Positions 3,824 to 57,693 of a DNA stretch of 64,000 nucleotides are shown here, in pieces; the stretch's first letter is position 1; every line of letters starts with the position of its first letter. The stretch is from Escherichia phage JLBYU43. The DNA is taken from the sequence record NC_105512.1; one strand, written 5' to 3'. Under the pieces are notes generated by a model. It did not search any database. It saw only the letters and a program-made list of their open reading frames with translations, and was not told where the DNA came from. A program made the position numbers and the translations under genes.

Positions 3824-3852
3824 TTGACATAGTGGATAATGTTTAGTATAAT
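3824..3852 (+). promoter_or_regulatory. consensus sigma70 promoter
   Basis: TTGACA-17-TATAAT. Confidence 0.6.
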
Positions 3853-3880
3853 AGGTGTAAAAATTCTGTGGAGAAGGGGA

Positions 3881-4744
3881 ATGCCGAAAAAATTAACTCA
3901 AGAAGAAGTAGATAAATGCCTAGCCGAACGTGGTTTTACTATGGTGGATAAGCCTTACCAAAATTCTAGGTATAGGCATACGTATCAGTGTGAATATGGT
4001 CATCAATGGACATCTAAATTTGATGCTATTAGGAATGGAAAGACCAATTGTCCTACTTGTTCTATTAATAGCCGTAAACTAGATATCGATAAAATTAATA
4101 CTGTATTACAGGGTAGGGGTATTACATTGTTGGAGGGCTATAAAAATAGTGCCGATATAAATACTAAATTTAGGTGTGTTTGTGGTCATGAGTGGGCTAC
4201 TACACTTAATAGTATAATTAATAGAGGTAGTGGCTGCCCCTCTTGTGCTATTAATAAACAAAAACTTAGTATTAATACTATAAACGATCGTCTTACTGCT
4301 AGGAATATTAGAATAGTAGGTGAATATAGTAATGCGAATATTAAGACCACCTTTCTCTGTGGTGCAGGGCATCAGTGGGAAGCTACTCCAGGATCCGTGT
4401 TAGGAGGAAATGGTTGTCCTTACTGTAAGTATAGGGATTTAGAAAATACTAAGGTATATATTATGCATAGCCCTTCACATGGTGTTAAAATAGGAAGGTC
4501 TAACAATCCAGAGCGCAGACTTTTACATATTAAATCTAGTAGTCACCTTACTGATCTGGAAGTAATTAAAGTATTTGAAATTGGAGAATATAGTGATGCT
4601 GTTCAAATCGAAAAATTAGCTCATAATTACTTTAAAGAACAGAATTGCCAATACAAAGATTTTGATGGTGCTACGGAATTCTTCAATATTGAGCCAGAAG
4701 TAGCTATAAAATTTATCGAGGAAATAATCAATGACAGAAAATGA
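3881..4744 (+). CDS. homing endonuclease-like protein (zinc-finger repeats plus T5orf172/GIY-YIG-like C-terminal domain)
   Basis: three Y-x-C-x-x-GH-x-W...CPxC repeats; C-terminal GVKIGRSNNPERRL...EFF; RBS GGAGAAGGGGA before ATG 3881; paralogs at 52203 and 57019. Confidence 0.6.
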   Translation: MPKKLTQEEVDKCLAERGFTMVDKPYQNSRYRHTYQCEYGHQWTSKFDAIRNGKTNCPTCSINSRKLDIDKINTVLQGRGITLLEGYKNSADINTKFRCVCGHEWATTLNSIINRGSGCPSCAINKQKLSINTINDRLTARNIRIVGEYSNANIKTTFLCGAGHQWEATPGSVLGGNGCPYCKYRDLENTKVYIMHSPSHGVKIGRSNNPERRLLHIKSSSHLTDLEVIKVFEIGEYSDAVQIEKLAHNYFKEQNCQYKDFDGATEFFNIEPEVAIKFIEEIINDRK

Positions 4745-50865: not shown

Positions 50866-51633
50866 TTAGGTTCCTTGATTAACCTTGATTTTATATCTAG
50901 AGTGAATCAGGTCTCTTGCAGCTTTTGCGATTGCTTCCCCAATAAGTTTTTGAGGGTTTCGAGCGCCAGGGTAAGGTCGTAGAGAAAGTCTTCGATATGT
51001 AGAAACTGCGGGGTTGAACACAGAGTAAGGACGAACCATATAGTTATACGTCACATTCAGCTCTGGAGCACCTTTACTAGTTTCTGCATCACGTAGCATA
51101 ACGTCTTTAATCTTTAAGGAGTTAGCAAAGCGACCAGTTCTGAACTTCAATGGTGCCCCTGCTTTTTTCATATCCTTGATTAAATATTCCTTAGCTACTA
51201 TCTCAAGAATAGCACGCATGTTACTATTTGATACGAAACGACCGGAAGCACCTGTTACTGCACCTGAATAGCCATCTTCAGTATCTCTAGGATCTCCAAA
51301 GTTTACTTGAACTCTACCGGTAGAACGTTTTTTACCAACAGCAGAACGTTTGCCTGCGGTTGCTTGAATTAAATTCTCTAGAGCGCCTAAATCACCGGAA
51401 AGATCTAAGTTAGAAGAAACAGCCTTCAGTATAGATGCTGTCCTAACATTTAATAAGTCTTGTGATACTGGTTTTGAGAATTTGAAAGATACCTGTGCAA
51501 CTGTGCCATCTCTTGTAGGATCCTTCAAACCAGTCTCAACTGTATATACAACAGTATTCTTATTATTCTCAGATCGTCCTGCAGTATCTAGCTGCTCTTT
51601 AATAATTTGTCTAGCTAGATCAGAAAGAGCCAT
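50866..51633 (-). CDS. neck/head-completion protein
   Basis: position in connector module. Confidence 0.4.
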   Translation of the reverse strand: MALSDLARQIIKEQLDTAGRSENNKNTVVYTVETGLKDPTRDGTVAQVSFKFSKPVSQDLLNVRTASILKAVSSNLDLSGDLGALENLIQATAGKRSAVGKKRSTGRVQVNFGDPRDTEDGYSGAVTGASGRFVSNSNMRAILEIVAKEYLIKDMKKAGAPLKFRTGRFANSLKIKDVMLRDAETSKGAPELNVTYNYMVRPYSVFNPAVSTYRRLSLRPYPGARNPQKLIGEAIAKAARDLIHSRYKIKVNQGT

Positions 51634-52145
51634 TACACTCTCCTATATACTTCGACGATTGTACGAATATGTTCTGGAATACCAGACTTAGTACTATTAA
51701 ACGTAATTGTCTCCCCGCCAATAGTCTTAGCTTGACGATAATCTTGCTTATGCCAGTGATCTACTAACAGGCATGCTGCCAGCTTAAGATCTTCAGGCAT
51801 TGGATTGAAACCACCTTGAGTATATTCTACATCCATATACCCTTCTGGTGGACTAAATTTAAGGAGAATAACACCATCTGGGTACAGCTTAAACTGTTCT
51901 GAGGCTATTTCATTCTCATTAATAGTCATCTTTGTAATAGATGTGGCTGAAGGAGAACTCAGGAAATATTTCCTACGGCTAGGTTTTGTGGTAATTAATT
52001 GATCTACCGCATCTGCATCATCCATACCTAGAAGGCTTGTAATCAGCGTATTGGCAGCTTTAATCATCATCTCAACCTGAGTTTCCATATCAGGACGTTT
52101 TAAATTCCCATATAGTTTATAATCTTCAACAGTGATGATTTGCAT
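51633..52145 (-). CDS. head-tail adaptor protein
   Basis: RBS AGGAAA; position. Confidence 0.45.
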   Translation of the reverse strand: MQIITVEDYKLYGNLKRPDMETQVEMMIKAANTLITSLLGMDDADAVDQLITTKPSRRKYFLSSPSATSITKMTINENEIASEQFKLYPDGVILLKFSPPEGYMDVEYTQGGFNPMPEDLKLAACLLVDHWHKQDYRQAKTIGGETITFNSTKSGIPEHIRTIVEVYRRV

Positions 52146-52160
52146 TTATTTTTCCTAATA

Positions 52161-52188
52161 ATAAAAAAGGAGAGCCGAAGCTCTCCTT
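52161..52188 (-). terminator. Rho-independent terminator after inserted endonuclease gene
   Basis: stem AAGGAGAGC/GCTCTCCTT, loop TTCG, then TTTTTTATT on minus strand. Confidence 0.7.
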
Positions 52189-52202
52189 ATCGGCTGAAAA
52201 GC

Positions 52203-52802
52203 CTAACTAAACATATAGTCATAAACTATTTCTTTTATATCTGGTAAATATTTTTCTAAACAAGTCTCAGTATACCCATCAGGTAGTAAAGCAGGTGTAA
52301 GAAAGGATGAAGGGATTATTTCCTTTACTATATTTTCTATATCTAGAGCGTACTCCTTACTATATAATTCTATAGCAAAGATTATGTTATGAGTATACTT
52401 TGAATTCTTAGACTGTTCTGAAAGTCTCTTTTCTACACTTCTAGTAGTAATCCCATACTTTAAGGCTGAGTGTGAAGTACAACTTAATTTTTGTAAATAA
52501 AAGTAAGTGGGAGTAGAGTTAGTATTTATATTCTTACAATTAGTATTTAATAAGCATCTATTTTGAAAGCATTTCGGGCATCTAGATCCATTAGTAATAA
52601 AATTACGAATACTAGGAGTCCATACATTTCCATCAATGTTACATTTAAGTTGTATTTTAGACTCTGCATTTTTAAAAGTATATACTAGTCCTTCATAAGT
52701 ATAATTCTCTTTAGTGCATATATCTAAAATCTGAGATTCTCTAATCTCGTACGGAATTGCTTTTCCAGACATTAGTGTTATATCCTTAATGTTAGTATAC
52801 AA
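52203..52802 (-). CDS. homing endonuclease-like protein (T5orf172-like) inserted between capsid and adaptor genes
   Basis: CPKC zinc motif, LKYGITTRSVEKRLSEQ; track start is TTG 52802, ATG 52772 with RBS AAGGA is the alternative. Confidence 0.5.
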   Translation of the reverse strand: MYTNIKDITLMSGKAIPYEIRESQILDICTKENYTYEGLVYTFKNAESKIQLKCNIDGNVWTPSIRNFITNGSRCPKCFQNRCLLNTNCKNINTNSTPTYFYLQKLSCTSHSALKYGITTRSVEKRLSEQSKNSKYTHNIIFAIELYSKEYALDIENIVKEIIPSSFLTPALLPDGYTETCLEKYLPDIKEIVYDYMFS

Positions 52803-52850
52803 TAGCTACTAAATATAATAGCTATTGTATACACCTCTTATAAGAGGTGT
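52795..52850. repeat. two adjacent perfect palindromes
   Basis: 14-bp inverted repeat GTATACAATAGCTA / TAGCTATTGTATAC (10-nt spacer), then 20-bp palindrome ACACCTCTTATAAGAGGTGT. Confidence 0.8.
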
Positions 52851-52859
52851 ATTTTATTA

Positions 52860-54236
52860 TTAAGATGCAGCGTAAGCACCAGATACAACGCCGTTTTCGA
52901 AGTAACGTTGCAGGTTAACACGCTGGGTAACGTAGTATGCGTCACGCTGTTTGCCAGCTTGGCGCTCACGTTCAACAGTAACGGCACGCTGACGCGGCAT
53001 TACAAAGTTATCTTTATAAACAATAACTGCGAATTCAGCGGAAGCAGCTTTAGCTGGGAAGTACTCAGAAACTACAACCGGCAGACCGTAAATACGACCA
53101 ACCTGACCCTGCAGTTTAACAGCATCGTTACCAACCTGGGCAACATCCTGCCATTCTTCATCTTCCAGCAGATCGTAGTAAGCATCCATAGATACGATCA
53201 GTACCAGTTTGCTCAGTTTCAGACCGTGACGGCCCAGTTTACGACGCAGCTTGGAGATAGTCTTAGCAGTTACCAGAACAGAACCGTCAGCTTTAGCTTC
53301 GGTAACAACCTTAGCACCATCATCAGCAGCCAGTTTCAGCAGACCCTTAGGCTGACCAGTACCATTACCGGACATGAAAGCTTCTTCGATAGAAACAGCG
53401 TGTGCTTCGATCAGACGCTTACGCAGCAGAGGCAGCAGGGAGAAGATTGCATCTTCTTCAGTTTCATCAGTGATGAAGGATTTAGCAGCCAGCTTGTAAG
53501 TTTTGAAGCTGATTTCAGTCAGTTGACCTTTAACTTCGTCACCAACAGTTTCGTCAGTACCGAATTTGGAAGCATCTACCCAAGTAGCACGACCAGCTTC
53601 TGGTTCAACGAGCATAGTAAGGATTTTGCTGGACATTGGCAGTTCATCGAACAGTGCACCAACTACCAGTTCCTTCTGCAGGTCACGGATAATACGGGTA
53701 GAGAAGATAGTTTCGTATGCTTCGCTAGACATGGAAACGGAAGAAGAACCGTTAACAGCTTTAACGTGAGCCTTACCATGTTCAGTTTCAAATACGTCCT
53801 TCTCCATCATATAAGACAGAAGAACCAGTTTTTCAACTTCATCTTCAAAAGCTTCCTGAGTACCATACAGTGCTTTAGCTACGCTATCACCGACGAAGGA
53901 ACGTCCTTCACGAGCTGCCAGCAGAGATTTGATTTCGTCCTGAAGACCAACAATAGTTTCCTGCTGTTTTTCTACAGTCTGTGCAAACAGTTCTGCGCTC
54001 TTCTTAGATTTTTCATCCAGGGATTTAACCAGTTCCAGAGCTTCTTCTAGCTTCTGACGATCTTCGCCAACTGCTTTAGAAACCAGATCATTCATACGAG
54101 CCAGTTCTTTTTCTTCCTGCTCTTTACGCATACGTTCAGCTTCAGCAGCTTTCTGAGCAGCGGTAAGACCTTCCAGAGATTTAGCCAGATCACCCAGACC
54201 AAGTTCTTCTTTCAGCTTATTAATATCAATAGTCAT
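52860..54236 (-). CDS. major capsid protein precursor (HK97 fold, pb8-like, 458 aa)
   Basis: N-terminal coiled-coil scaffold-like segment, HK97-like core; optimal codons. Confidence 0.9.
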   Translation of the reverse strand: MTIDINKLKEELGLGDLAKSLEGLTAAQKAAEAERMRKEQEEKELARMNDLVSKAVGEDRQKLEEALELVKSLDEKSKKSAELFAQTVEKQQETIVGLQDEIKSLLAAREGRSFVGDSVAKALYGTQEAFEDEVEKLVLLSYMMEKDVFETEHGKAHVKAVNGSSSVSMSSEAYETIFSTRIIRDLQKELVVGALFDELPMSSKILTMLVEPEAGRATWVDASKFGTDETVGDEVKGQLTEISFKTYKLAAKSFITDETEEDAIFSLLPLLRKRLIEAHAVSIEEAFMSGNGTGQPKGLLKLAADDGAKVVTEAKADGSVLVTAKTISKLRRKLGRHGLKLSKLVLIVSMDAYYDLLEDEEWQDVAQVGNDAVKLQGQVGRIYGLPVVVSEYFPAKAASAEFAVIVYKDNFVMPRQRAVTVERERQAGKQRDAYYVTQRVNLQRYFENGVVSGAYAAS

Positions 54237-55378: not shown

Positions 55379-56592
55379 TCTTTATCTCCCTCGGTGGAAC
55401 CTTGAGGTCTACCACCTTCTTGACCAGATACGCCTGTTGCAGAACCAGCAACGTTAGCAGGAATACGAATCTTATTCATCTGCTCATCATCTAAAGGTTC
55501 AAGGTTCAGCTCTAAACGAGCTTCGTTACCAGTTATAATACCATTATTAACCAATGAGGTTAAATGTTTAGCCTCAGATTCTTTATCTGGTGTTAATGCA
55601 GCTACTTCCTTAGTATTAGGAGTAATCTTATAACCAAAAAAGAAAGTAAGAGAACTAGTCAGTTTGTTCAGCATAGGGATGATAGTCATATAATAGAACA
55701 GTTCGATGTTTGGTCGAATGTTCGCATTATTACCCCCATCAAGTAGCACCTGCGGAACACCAAAGGCTAGACAGATAGATTTATTAAATCCTTCGATGTC
55801 TTCCTTAAAGTCTAGATCTTTAAAAGAGGATATTTGGGAGTACGGTTTAGCTTTCATACCACCATCTAGAATCAGGACAGAGGACTGACCAGTACTAGGA
55901 TTATAATCTAGTTGTAATTCTTCTTGTTTACGCTCACGCAATTTCTTGTTCAGGATTTCATCCGTCTCAAGAATAAGACCAATCACGGTTCCGTTATCTA
56001 GGAACTTCTCTTTAAAGTTAAGCATCTTAGAACGCTTCTCCAGAGAATCAATAACAGTAGCAACACGAGATTGTCCAGAAATTTGAGAATTTGTGCCGCA
56101 CACGTAACTGTTATCCTTTATAAAGATAATCTCATCTACGCGATAGTCTATCTGATTATTAAATATAAATTTTTTGATAAACTTATTGGCATCTGCCTCT
56201 ACTTGCATTAATGCAGCAGGGACATGGTAAAGTGCTGTGCCATCCCAATAGATGTATGCACAACCTTCAAAAAGTAGGTCAGTGACTACAAGTCTACGGA
56301 ATGTGCTTATATCCATGAATGGATTAGGTCGTACATTTAAGAGAGTGTCTAGAGTCTTTGCCTTGACGCCGTTAGCGTACGTGACAATATTATATTTATC
56401 TCCGACAGTATAAGAACACTCCGCCGCACTATCTATAACCATATTAGCAGTTCTATTGAGAATCTCAATTTTACTGTAGGCTTGTCCAGTGGTAAAAGGC
56501 TTACGGTTAGTGCGATGACTAACTGGTTCCATGTCTCTTATAATACGTTGACCCGGATTTAGCTTTTCAGTAATCCAGCTTTTAAAACCCAT
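55375..56592 (-). CDS. portal protein (pb7-like, 405 aa)
   Basis: size and position between terminase and protease. Confidence 0.8.
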   Translation of the reverse strand: MGFKSWITEKLNPGQRIIRDMEPVSHRTNRKPFTTGQAYSKIEILNRTANMVIDSAAECSYTVGDKYNIVTYANGVKAKTLDTLLNVRPNPFMDISTFRRLVVTDLLFEGCAYIYWDGTALYHVPAALMQVEADANKFIKKFIFNNQIDYRVDEIIFIKDNSYVCGTNSQISGQSRVATVIDSLEKRSKMLNFKEKFLDNGTVIGLILETDEILNKKLRERKQEELQLDYNPSTGQSSVLILDGGMKAKPYSQISSFKDLDFKEDIEGFNKSICLAFGVPQVLLDGGNNANIRPNIELFYYMTIIPMLNKLTSSLTFFFGYKITPNTKEVAALTPDKESEAKHLTSLVNNGIITGNEARLELNLEPLDDEQMNKIRIPANVAGSATGVSGQEGGRPQGSTEGDKE

Positions 56593-57029
56593 TATAAGAA
56601 CCTTGCGAATCCTGATTTTGTTTCAGTCTTGACTTGTGTCTTTTCTTGAGGATTCTGTAATTTGTCTTTCTGCTTTTGAACCCACACTTTTTGCTTATTA
56701 GCAGAAAATAAAGGAGGTTCTTTTGTGTAAACCTTATGTAATAATTGGTGATGATGCTGGCATAATGTTACTACGTCTCTAACTAATTCATGCTCATATT
56801 TCTTATAGAATGCTTCCCTATTTGAAAGGACGATATTCTCATCAGTGAAATCCAGCTGGAGTTCTTTAGCAAAATTTTTAATTAGTTGAGATATAGTATG
56901 ATAGTGATGAAGTTCTAGGGCTTCATCACTACCGCATATAGCACAGCAACCATCCTTACTATACCTAGATTTTATACCATCCCTCATTATGGAAATGGCA
57001 TCACGTTTGTACTTAGTATTAGTGGCCAT
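56592..57029 (-). CDS. HNH endonuclease
   Basis: CAICGS...LELHHYH...CQHHHQLLH; ATG 57029 with RBS GGAGG. Confidence 0.7.
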   Translation of the reverse strand: MATNTKYKRDAISIMRDGIKSRYSKDGCCAICGSDEALELHHYHTISQLIKNFAKELQLDFTDENIVLSNREAFYKKYEHELVRDVVTLCQHHHQLLHKVYTKEPPLFSANKQKVWVQKQKDKLQNPQEKTQVKTETKSGFARFL

Positions 57030-57693
57030 ATTCCTCCAATCCAAAGTTACTTAGAAAGACTACTATATCCTCTGGAGCAACATTAAAAAATTCTGTGCTT
57101 CCTGTAAATTTTGAAAACCCACAGTTTTTATTATAATATTCTCTATGGACTTCTTTTTCTAAATCTAGAGCAGTTTCTCTATCAGGTAAGTGATACGTGG
57201 TAAATAAGTATAGATCTGAAAATCCAGACTCTCTTTTAACCTCGTTCAATCGCTTCTCGGGGTATAAACTTATACCTACTTTAGTACCCATAGAAGAGGA
57301 CATGATATAGAGAAATCCACCATTATCCCATTTAAGGGAGCAATAAGGACATCTTCTACCTTGCGTCAACCCATCTAAGGTAATATAGCATTCATGACCA
57401 TTATTACAGCGTAGATGTAGTTTTGTTTTTGCATTAGTATAGTTATTTAACAGTGTATACCCTATACTGGATATCCTGTTATTAACTTCATCTAGCAATA
57501 TAGTATTAGGTGCGCAGTGTGGGCAACCCCTCTTAATATGGAGTATAGAATGTGGCGTTGCTTCCCAAACGTGTGCTCTTTGGCACTTAAATACTGTTTT
57601 TGTACGTTGGTTTACATATTCACCGACAATTTGGATTCCACGATCAGCTAATCTAGTATTTATATCTTTTATTGTTAGCTTTTGTCGACCCAT
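57019..57693 (-). CDS. homing endonuclease-like protein (zinc-finger repeats + T5orf172-like domain)
   Basis: CPHC/CPYC motifs, C-terminal GTKVGISLYPEKRL...EFFNV; paralog of 3881-4744. Confidence 0.6.
   Translation of the reverse strand: MGRQKLTIKDINTRLADRGIQIVGEYVNQRTKTVFKCQRAHVWEATPHSILHIKRGCPHCAPNTILLDEVNNRISSIGYTLLNNYTNAKTKLHLRCNNGHECYITLDGLTQGRRCPYCSLKWDNGGFLYIMSSSMGTKVGISLYPEKRLNEVKRESGFSDLYLFTTYHLPDRETALDLEKEVHREYYNKNCGFSKFTGSTEFFNVAPEDIVVFLSNFGLEEYGH

Follow-up and report, generated by a model that had tools for sequence, protein, structure and literature searches.

The DNA analysed here is a 64,000-nucleotide (nt) stretch of Escherichia phage JLBYU43 (NC_105512.1), the whole of which is called the window, and the element in question is a homing-endonuclease gene with a palindromic leader, located between the major capsid gene and a head-completion (adaptor) gene. 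The phage is T5-like, of the family Demerecviridae, and the closest record is that of Salmonella phage PHZ191 (98% identity). In the piece in focus (52,146-54,236) the genes all lie on the minus strand. The endonuclease gene was found to be part of an inserted cassette whose leader folds as two abutting hairpins (Table 1). An earlier reading of the sequence alone (the original prediction) had placed the gene in the late structural operon with capsid and adaptor genes as its neighbours, and Pfam matches to both neighbours and a phrog match to the capsid gene bear this out. The real start of the gene is the ATG at 52772 and its stop is a TAG at 52203-52205; the program-made list of open reading frames (ORFs) extends the frame to a TTG at 52802.

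An insertion between the capsid gene and its terminator

The boundaries of the insertion were taken from a comparison of the junctions with the empty sites of phages 118970_sal2, AKM_ECS, Gostya9 and T5. In short, the empty site is the capsid stop TAA followed by TACAGGCTTTTCAGCC and the terminator, and its sense strand reads TAA TACAG GCTTTTCAGCC GAT AAGGAGAGC-TTCG-GCTCTCCTT TTTTATT..GGAAAAATAAATG. This comparison with relatives lacking the endonuclease, which the original prediction had proposed, fixed both limits of the insert, and both palindromes lie inside them. In genomes without the gene the palindromes, whose unchanged presence there would have spoken against the original prediction, are absent, and the empty sites hold only TAATACAGGCTTTTCAGCC and then the terminator. 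The picture of a self-contained mobile cassette in the operon is upheld by the empty sites, by the confinement of the palindromes to the insert, and by the mosaic flanks described below. The cassette is also distinct in its composition profile, with 28-31% G+C against 39-49% in the flanks, and the TAG stop of the endonuclease gene is assembled across the right junction.

Presence of the cassette is polymorphic at this one fixed site among relatives, 31 of the 524 matching phage records having the endonuclease gene at the junction and the others matching the 59-nt terminator segment only. About 490 related records lack the ORF, including T5, Gostya9, DT57C, Stitch and 118970_sal2, and have a capsid-adaptor gap of 59-63 nt. 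The occupied sites fall into four lineages. Lineage A has 4 records (PHZ191, RUS_R2, FGS017 and FGS029), and the window belongs to it; lineages B (SelmaRatti-like), C (NR01-like) and D (SP3/Kenya-like) have 27 records between them. In nucleotides, the gene of lineage A is 63-66% identical to those of the other three lineages, which are 75-77% identical to one another. Viral and metagenome contigs, when scanned, yielded only two new loci with cassette A, one per collection, and one with cassette B, from the metagenome collection. The gene of Tennessee (L026) is a B/D chimera: over its first ~420 nt (some three-quarters of it) it matches lineage B at 90-100% identity, and over its last ~120 nt it matches lineage D at 100%, so the lineages recombine within the ORF. 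Two short "Listeria phage" records (OR846901.1 and OR848485.1) have T5-like capsid, endonuclease and adaptor genes identical to those of Salmonella and E. coli phages; their host labels look unreliable, and the sister record OR844781.1 (Escherichia phage ECO111 5-P) is flagged UNVERIFIED_ORG.

The terminator downstream of the gene has the features of an intrinsic terminator: a GC-rich stem of 9 pairs (5 of them G-C) with a UUCG loop at 52167-52188, a tail to 52157 in which the stem is followed by UUUUAUUAUU, and a position at the end of a transcription unit. The original prediction was correct in seeing a strong terminator here and wrong in assigning it to the endonuclease gene as its own. The same terminator stands directly after the capsid gene in the empty-site genomes (95-100% identity), and the annotations of T5 and AKM_ECS list it as a terminator; it is therefore the resident capsid terminator, displaced by 653 nt. 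Lineage A keeps the ancestral sequence. In lineages B, C and D the terminator reads GGCTCTTTAGCC GAAAGAGAGC-TTCG-GCTCTC TTTTTT, one stem pair having been lost by matching deletions in the two arms, and the small loop upstream being altered. This variant was seen in L002, L003, L007, L008 and L024-L030 at the equivalent of window positions 52146-52204; it is 100% identical across the three lineages, is present in all 27 of their occupied records and is found in none of the empty sites. It may be a cleavage-resistant allele of the target or a fixed co-conversion tract.

The flanks of the cassette are mosaic. Between 52120 and 52892 the window has 4 mismatches to RUS_R2 in 773 nt (99.4-100% identity by segment, 99.4% in the cassette), whereas outside the cassette identity is 84-90% in the adaptor gene and 90% at the 3' end of the capsid gene (84-92% over the flanks overall). 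Compared with Tequintavirus FGS017, identity is 95% in the cassette and 78-83% in the adaptor gene. The empty-site phage 118970_sal2 is 100% identical to the window at 51936-52119 and 52860-52892 and 99% identical at 52893-53100. PHZ191 is near-identical to the window except at 51936-52119, the 5' part of the adaptor gene, where it is 98.9% identical to RUS_R2 and 84.8% identical to the window, the donor-type tract being longer in PHZ191 and extending to 51936. This switch of identity among PHZ191, the window and 118970_sal2 marks a recombination boundary directly beside the cassette. The right tract includes the terminator tail variant ATTATTAGG (Gostya9-type) as opposed to the local backbone type ATTGGG. 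The cassette is thus closer between genomes than are its flanks, and the length of co-converted flank varies; one cassette in differing backbones with donor tracts of unequal length is the pattern expected of homing by double-strand-break repair. By these comparisons the cassette has been mobile in recent time, and the terminator is co-inherited with it only as part of a flanking co-conversion tract. Published work likewise places nuclease genes at the borders of genetic exchange between phages (PMC10448857).

Table 1. Features of the capsid-adaptor junction, in window positions
Feature	Positions	Strand	Remarks
Major capsid gene	52860-54236	-	Pfam Phage_capsid 3.7e-23; phrog_10 major head protein 4.7e-50; orthologue of T5 D20-21/pb8
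Left flank	52858-52892	.	Identical in window, PHZ191 and RUS_R2; RUS_R2 identity falls from 52893
Capsid stop codon TAA	52860-52862	-	Left edge of insertion site
A-rich spacer	52853-52859	-	Sense UAA UAA UAA AA, the capsid stop and two extra in-frame stops; specific to lineage A
Inserted cassette, 653 nt	52205-52857	-	Replaces the single C of the empty-site TAA TA-C-AGGCTTTTC (TA-C-AGGC)
Hairpin 1 (hp1)	52829-52852	-	Perfect 24-nt palindrome; 10-bp stem, 4-nt loop, -12.9 kcal/mol
Hairpin 2 (hp2)	52795-52832	-	AU-rich; 17-bp stem, 4-nt loop, -21.3 kcal/mol; 4 nt (52829-52832) in common with hp1
Shine-Dalgarno sequence (SD) AAGGA of endonuclease gene	52783-52787	-	Predicted unpaired in lineage A, mean probability 0.92
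Homing-endonuclease gene, 189 aa	52203-52772	-	CapR-type zinc finger ~11-68 and divergent GIY-YIG (T5orf172/MUG113-like) domain ~88-175
Right co-conversion tract	52120-52204	.	100% in 5 of 6 lineage-A genomes compared; 95.3% in FGS017
Small resident hairpin GGCU-UUUC-AGCC	52192-52203	-	Directly right of insertion point; in presumed target region
Resident capsid terminator	52157-52188	-	AAGGAGAGC-UUCG-GCUCUCCUU then U-tract, from terminator scan; outside the insert
Head-completion/adaptor gene	51633-52145	-	Pfam HCP 4.7e-77

In lineage A only, a 14-nt inverted repeat (13 of 14 positions complementary; 52153-52166 and 52852-52865) brackets the terminator, the gene and the hairpins, and makes hp1 with its T-tract mirror the resident terminator tail on the opposite strand. 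This repeat was considered as a pair of terminal repeats of the element and set aside, being specific to lineage A, composed mostly of A/T only and partly capsid coding sequence; it may have arisen by chance.

A two-hairpin leader in four cassette lineages

The original prediction had described two contiguous perfect palindromes upstream of the gene. Both are present and hp1 is perfect, but hp2 is not, its stem consisting of 14 pairs, one mismatch and 2 pairs, and the two overlap. The mismatch is U.G on the sense RNA and C.A on the plus strand, so that hp2 pairs fully only as sense RNA. After hp2 there remain about 20-22 nt, with the SD and the AUG. The 3' arm of hp1 (AAGAGGUG) is SD-like, and the 5' arm (ACACCUCUUA) resembles the 3' end of 16S rRNA. 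A function of hp2 as a spacer that brings the SD-like arm near the AUG was rejected, as ~20 nt would remain after folding. The minus-strand RNA of the 103-nt palindrome region has a predicted folding energy of -33.3 kcal/mol against -13.8 +/- 2.7 for shuffled sequences (z = -7.2; a stability reached by 0 of 200 shuffles). The 64-kb window has just 6 perfect hairpins whose stem is 10 bp or longer (shuffle mean 1.15), and the hp1/hp2 pair accounts for two of them. A full-length match to the 103-nt region was found in four phage records only, all with the lineage-A cassette. No leader of comparable structure precedes the two other T5orf172 genes of the window (fold z -0.8 and -0.1).

Neither hp1 nor hp2 is followed by a U-tract on the minus strand in any lineage, and the original prediction was right that they are not simple minus-strand terminators. 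On the plus strand, hp1 followed by TTTTATTATT scores as terminator-like, a feature that lineages B-D do not have. Searches of 51900-53100 against Rfam at a permissive E-value gave matches at chance level only (best match 25 bits, gathering score 52). Both the early and the late promoters of T5 are described as being of the sigma-70 type (PMC7472727), and a scan for sigma-70 consensus sites found no promoter-like site of at least 9/12 in the leader of any lineage. All lineages share a hexamer, TATACT, at the 3' base of hp2, which has no -35 partner. An internal promoter of this type was accordingly rejected, although one of unusual form could escape such consensus scans.

The two-hairpin structure is conserved across the four lineages. 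In each, the capsid stop is followed by a spacer of 10-14 nt, hp1, hp2, and ~20 nt with the SD and AUG. Hp1 has a stem of 8-11 bp with a C/U-rich 5' arm, a 3' arm containing GAGG and a 4-nt loop; hp2 has a near-perfect, AU-rich stem of 13-20 bp that abuts hp1 or overlaps it by 3-7 nt, and is a perfect palindrome of 38-40 nt in C and D. Fold z-scores are -7.2, -3.8, -6.8 and -5.2 for A, B, C and D, respectively. In hp1, both sides change in 6 of 11 pairs between lineages, a covariation score reached by 0 of 500 shuffles. Among seven distinct lineage-B leaders, none of the 44 stem columns is variable, as against 12 of 45 other columns, and in HildyBeyeler, where the gene is frameshifted, both hairpins are intact. 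A sequence-specific recognition site for a protein, a form of one role suggested for the palindromes by the original prediction, is unlikely because the sequences differ among four lineages that keep the same architecture. The other roles that it named, a processing site or a stabiliser at the 3' end of the capsid mRNA, may apply; for RNase III or a similar enzyme, hp2 would offer a 17-bp AU-rich stem set against the 10-bp stem of hp1 without any spacer.

Outside the hairpins the leaders differ. The spacers of lineages B-D are unlike that of A. In B, C and partly D, nt 4-18 past the capsid stop are predicted to pair with the SD region, forming a closing helix that makes a three-way junction around hp1 and hp2; no closing helix is predicted in lineage A. 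The SD has a predicted unpaired probability of 0.12-0.48 in B-D, as compared to 0.92 in A. In lineage C, a C-to-U change in YJin keeps the closing-helix pair as G.U.

Several observations were made on the leaders of close relatives. The loop of hp1 is flipped to its exact reverse complement between near-identical phages in three lineages (AAAA/TTTT, TAAT/ATTA and GATA/TATC; seen in L002 versus L003/L028, L007 versus L024 and L008 versus L025), the lineage-B flip occurring on two leader backgrounds. Such flips read as the signature of recurrent small DNA inversions or of template switching at a perfect inverted repeat; in the window the hp1 loop (52839-52842) is self-complementary, so a flip there would be invisible. 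At 52800-52802 the window has an in-frame TTG where HildyBeyeler (L003) and Tennessee (L026) have an in-frame ATG. In these two phages the ATG, in the 3' arm of hp2, gives a 9-codon extension of the endonuclease, and Tennessee is annotated with that start; in SelmaRatti (L002) the same ATG opens an 8-codon mini-ORF ending in TAA-ATG.

The endonuclease and comparable systems

The protein combines a significant CapR domain with a divergent nuclease domain. The CapR homology domain (PF21817, residues 11-68) scores 41 bits against a cut-off of 24.2 and is a member of that family; residues C19, C44, C65 and C68 are invariant among T5-like homologues, and 52 of 56 homologues match CapR. The nuclease domain scores 14.1 bits against T5orf172 (PF10544; cut-off 20) and 16 against MUG113 (PF13455; cut-off 22.3), both below the gathering threshold, so that strict Pfam membership in T5orf172 or MUG113 does not hold. 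Two other genes of the window do pass the T5orf172 threshold, and hhalign comparison to their products, the bona fide T5orf172 proteins of the window, gave weak matches (probabilities of 57% and 72%, the second to the zinc finger only). A full HMMER scan returned 2576 homologues. In an alignment of 56 of these, Y92, K105, G107, R116, E146, G166 and E169 are invariant, and all are present in the intact ORF of the window; at E < 1e-3, 9 of the 56 match MUG113 and 3 match T5orf172. A word-indexed protein search found four close relatives only, and a profile search of Protein Data Bank sequences gave 0 matches. An AlphaFold model (mean predicted local distance difference test score, pLDDT, 67; ~73-79 in the nuclease domain) has a beta-beta-alpha-beta-alpha topology, the predicted C-terminal fold being nearest to the GIY-YIG nuclease SLX1. 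With this core fold and the conserved Tyr, Tyr/Lys-x-Gly, Arg and Glu, the modelled domain belongs to the GIY-YIG superfamily. The "T5orf172-like" label of the original prediction is thus correct in part only, and the enzyme is a divergent branch of the CapR-plus-T5orf172 family.

T5orf172 endonuclease genes are abundant in T5-like phages, and ~40% carry a CapR domain (PMC10448857, PMC8096241). The cassette resembles the T5orf172 genes of ICP1 and other phages, T5-like ones included, in its CapR zinc finger followed by a nuclease of the GIY-YIG clan (Barth, Dunham and Seed 2023, PMC10448857; Netter et al. 2021, PMC8096241) and in its place at an exchange boundary between related phages, with mosaic flanks. 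It differs from them in having one CapR repeat only and a nuclease domain below the Pfam T5orf172 and MUG113 thresholds. Word searches of the two ICP1 T5orf172/CapR papers (PMC10448857, PMC8096241) and of the Salmonella phage Tennessee paper turned up no structured leader of this kind.

Control by RNA structure is known from the T-even phages, whose endonuclease genes are regulated by hairpins at the ribosome-binding site (RBS), internal terminators and RNase E processing (Edgell, Gibb and Belfort 2010, PMC2988022). Like the free-standing or intron-borne genes I-TevI/II/III, T4 segB, Aeh1 mobE and seg43(25) (PMC2988022), the free-standing gene of the cassette lies in an essential operon, is most likely transcribed by read-through and has a very stable predicted hairpin directly upstream of its RBS. 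Seg43(25) of Aeromonas phage 25 is like the window in layout, its strong hairpin ending immediately ahead of an RBS that is left free (PMC2988022); in lineages B-D and in the RB16 homologue described below the SD is predicted to be occluded, as in T-even genes. Unlike the T-even genes, the cassette has two abutting hairpins sharing 3-7 nt in place of one, no embedded promoter was detected in it, its host is a T5-like phage with sigma-70 late promoters, and the SD of lineage A is predicted to be free.

Two homologues in other structural operons were compared directly. RB16p203 of the T4-like phage RB16 is a 34% identical protein encoded just past the stop of a structural gene, between the genes for the neck protein gp14 and gp15. 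Its leader (L035 122-178) has two abutting hairpins, of which the second aligns with hp1; a local alignment of the hp1 region of lineage B with RB16 scored 34, a score that 0 of 2000 shuffles reached. In RB16, unlike the cassette, the 3' arm of the hp1-like hairpin (GAGGGG) is the working SD, 8 nt before the AUG, and is paired in the predicted minimum-energy fold, whereas in the T5-like cassettes hp1 is separated from the start codon by hp2 and a new SD. A search with a covariance model built on hp1 matched the window and RB16 only, with no other match in the window, the T5 loci or the loci of distant homologues. The presence of the RB16 homologue between gp14 and gp15 indicates that the family recurrently occupies junctions inside late structural operons. 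In T5, the paralogue T5.141 (37% identity over the CapR and nuclease domains) is likewise inserted among late structural genes, with the tail assembly chaperone gene on one side and the tape-measure gene on the other, but it has two CapR repeats and, in place of the double hairpin, a canonical terminator upstream (GGCTCTGGG...CCCAGAGCC then a T-tract). No orthologue of T5.141 was found in the window. Neither T5.141 nor the lineage-B gene matches T5orf172 or MUG113 at E <= 0.1; the lineage-C gene has a sub-threshold MUG113 match.

Intercistronic stem-loops are also known to stabilise the mRNA upstream of them, as do the repetitive extragenic palindromic (REP) elements of malEFG and the RNase III hairpins of T7. 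The leader resembles these in lacking a U-tract and, by analogy, in standing between a gene of high expression on its 5' side and one of low expression on its 3' side. It differs in being carried by a mobile cassette as opposed to a host operon, and the likeness is one of analogy only.

Other likely mobile genes were noted elsewhere in the window. At 57019-57693 (minus strand), between the large terminase and portal genes, lies a gene for a 224-aa protein with two zinc-finger repeats and a T5orf172 match (6.4e-9); its 171-nt upstream spacer has a hairpin and a promoter-like site (TTTACA-17-TATACT) and no double hairpin. In tandem with it is a 150-aa ORF (56592-57044, minus strand), likely mobile, with HNH-like Cys/His residues by eye and no Pfam match. 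A third T5orf172 gene (3839-4744, plus strand; 301 aa, three zinc-finger repeats, 6e-12) lies directly upstream of, and overlaps the start of, a large ORF resembling anaerobic ribonucleotide reductase.

Candidate roles of the leader

The reading favoured here, and held to be probable by a modest measure, is that a mobile CapR/GIY-YIG endonuclease cassette has inserted ahead of the resident capsid terminator, with its hairpin leader acting as an RNA insulator or dampener. In a mixed infection the enzyme would cut the cassette-less allele around TAATACAGGCTTTTCAGCC, and repair from the cassette-bearing genome would copy the cassette together with flank of variable length. No promoter was found in the leader, and the gene most likely depends on read-through from the capsid gene; the endonuclease would thus be expressed from a very heavily transcribed gene, on transcripts ending at the resident terminator in its new place past the endonuclease gene. 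The palindromes are the 5' leader of the cassette, predicted to form two abutting stem-loops on the sense RNA directly after the capsid stop, with hp1 presumably descended from an RBS-occluding hairpin of the same endonuclease family. The hairpins may provide a stable boundary that protects the capsid message once the AU-rich endonuclease segment has been degraded, and may keep endonuclease output low from a transcript made at capsid-gene levels. Hp1 and hp2 are common to all lineages and the closing helix is not, so the common role is probably not RBS occlusion itself; with the lineage-A SD predicted to be free, any dampening there would act through RNA stability or processing. The wobble pair of hp2 that forms on the sense strand only, the closing pair kept as G.U and the match of hp1 to RB16 favour a leader that acts as RNA and travels with the gene.

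Several points weigh against this reading. Every functional step in it is drawn from comparison of sequences and structures, and the protein model is of moderate confidence only (pLDDT 67). The promoter scan covered sigma-70 consensus sites only. The lineage-A SD is predicted to be open (0.92), so RBS occlusion, the best-documented mechanism, does not apply here in its known form. Watson-Crick pairs make up almost the whole of the stems, and in DNA hp1 is a perfect palindrome, as is hp2 in C and D; perfect stems are equally compatible with a feature of the DNA or with a mutational bias from template switching. The sequences of hp2 cannot be aligned between lineages, which makes the conservation architectural and not formal covariation, and the lineages are few and related, so that the shuffle controls overstate significance.

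Two alternatives also concern expression of the gene. The hairpins could be a substitute partial terminator or attenuator that restores the drop in transcription after the capsid gene; they sit where the resident terminator lies in empty sites, directly past the capsid stop, in its GC-containing stem and 4-nt loop hp1 is like the terminators of the phage itself, and the internal terminator of T4 mobE stops ~30% of transcripts (PMC2988022). This is unlikely, however, given that no lineage has a sense-strand U-tract, that hp2 directly follows hp1, that hp1 of lineage A is terminator-like on the antisense (plus) strand only and not at all in B-D, and that the recognised terminators of the phage are canonical. 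Alternatively, the hairpins could gate translation of the endonuclease as in I-TevI, segB and Aeh1 mobE, the RBS being occluded on read-through RNA and freed either by a promoter inside the hairpin or by ribosomes that terminate at the capsid stop and melt the closing helix. The mechanism is documented in T-even phages (PMC2988022), and it would account for the closing helix of B, C and partly D with its weakly accessible SD (0.12-0.48), for the YJin change that keeps its pair as G.U, and for the alignment of hp1 with the RBS-occluding hairpin of RB16. It is nonetheless a rather unlikely explanation: in the window, as in lineage A generally, there is no closing helix and the SD is predicted to be free (0.92), so that no occlusion of the RBS is predicted; the helix is unstable across lineage-B variants; the sigma-70 scan gave no credible internal promoter; and the SD-like arm of hp1 has no start codon at a usable distance.

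The remaining alternatives place the origin or the action of the palindromes in the DNA. One is that they have no function, being by-products of template switching in AT-rich foreign DNA that hitch-hike with the cassette. The recurrent loop flips do show template switching or small inversion to be active here, and quasi-palindrome correction is known to yield perfect stems as opposed to G.U-containing ones. Against this, the two-hairpin layout is found in one and the same place in four lineages, despite differences of 23-37% between their genes, no stem substitutions are found within lineages while neighbouring leader positions vary, the hp1 homologue is kept in a T4-like phage, and there are just 6 such hairpins in 64 kb; absence of function is considered quite improbable. 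More doubtful again is that the palindromes act as DNA, whether as a site of recognition, cleavage or operator binding for the endonuclease (as in the autorepression of I-TevI) or as a cruciform or hairpin that promotes recombination. Hp1 and, in C and D, also hp2 form perfect palindromes of 24-40 nt in the DNA, the loop flips in three lineages point to hairpin events in the DNA, the SLX1 proteins, which the nuclease domain resembles in structure, are structure-specific nucleases, and CapR domains bind promoter DNA (PMC8096241). Yet the palindromes are wholly different in sequence between lineages while the DNA-binding domains are ~60-90% similar, the mismatch in hp2 of the window is C.A as DNA and a U.G pair as sense RNA, and loop flips are expected at any perfect inverted repeat and require no function. 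The GIY-YIG homing enzymes so far characterised are monomers that act on asymmetric sites, which also counts against such a role. A special form of this idea, that extruded hp1 and hp2 hairpins or cruciforms are bound or cut by the SLX1-like nuclease in structure-directed mobility or copy-choice, with the loop flips as its footprint, would be the least probable of all.

The preferred reading, a homing cassette with an RNA-acting leader, adds no new class of system, as neither the gene family nor hairpin control in general is new; the leader itself, its compensatory conservation and its link to a T4-like RBS hairpin appear to be undescribed in the literature searched. The locus is a clean natural example of a selfish endonuclease gene placed between the most heavily expressed gene of a phage and that gene's terminator, with base-exact boundaries, an almost isogenic empty-site relative and donor tracts of differing length in relatives. 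That a leader kept in structure in four lineages can be traced to an RBS hairpin of a T4-like phage suggests that cassettes of this kind travel with RNA modules of their own that lower the burden on the host operon, as documented so far for T-even phages. If this is true, the leader would be a compact, transferable insulator for the engineering of T5-like therapeutic phages, and the enzyme together with its target would offer a marker-rescue tool for the capsid/neck junction.

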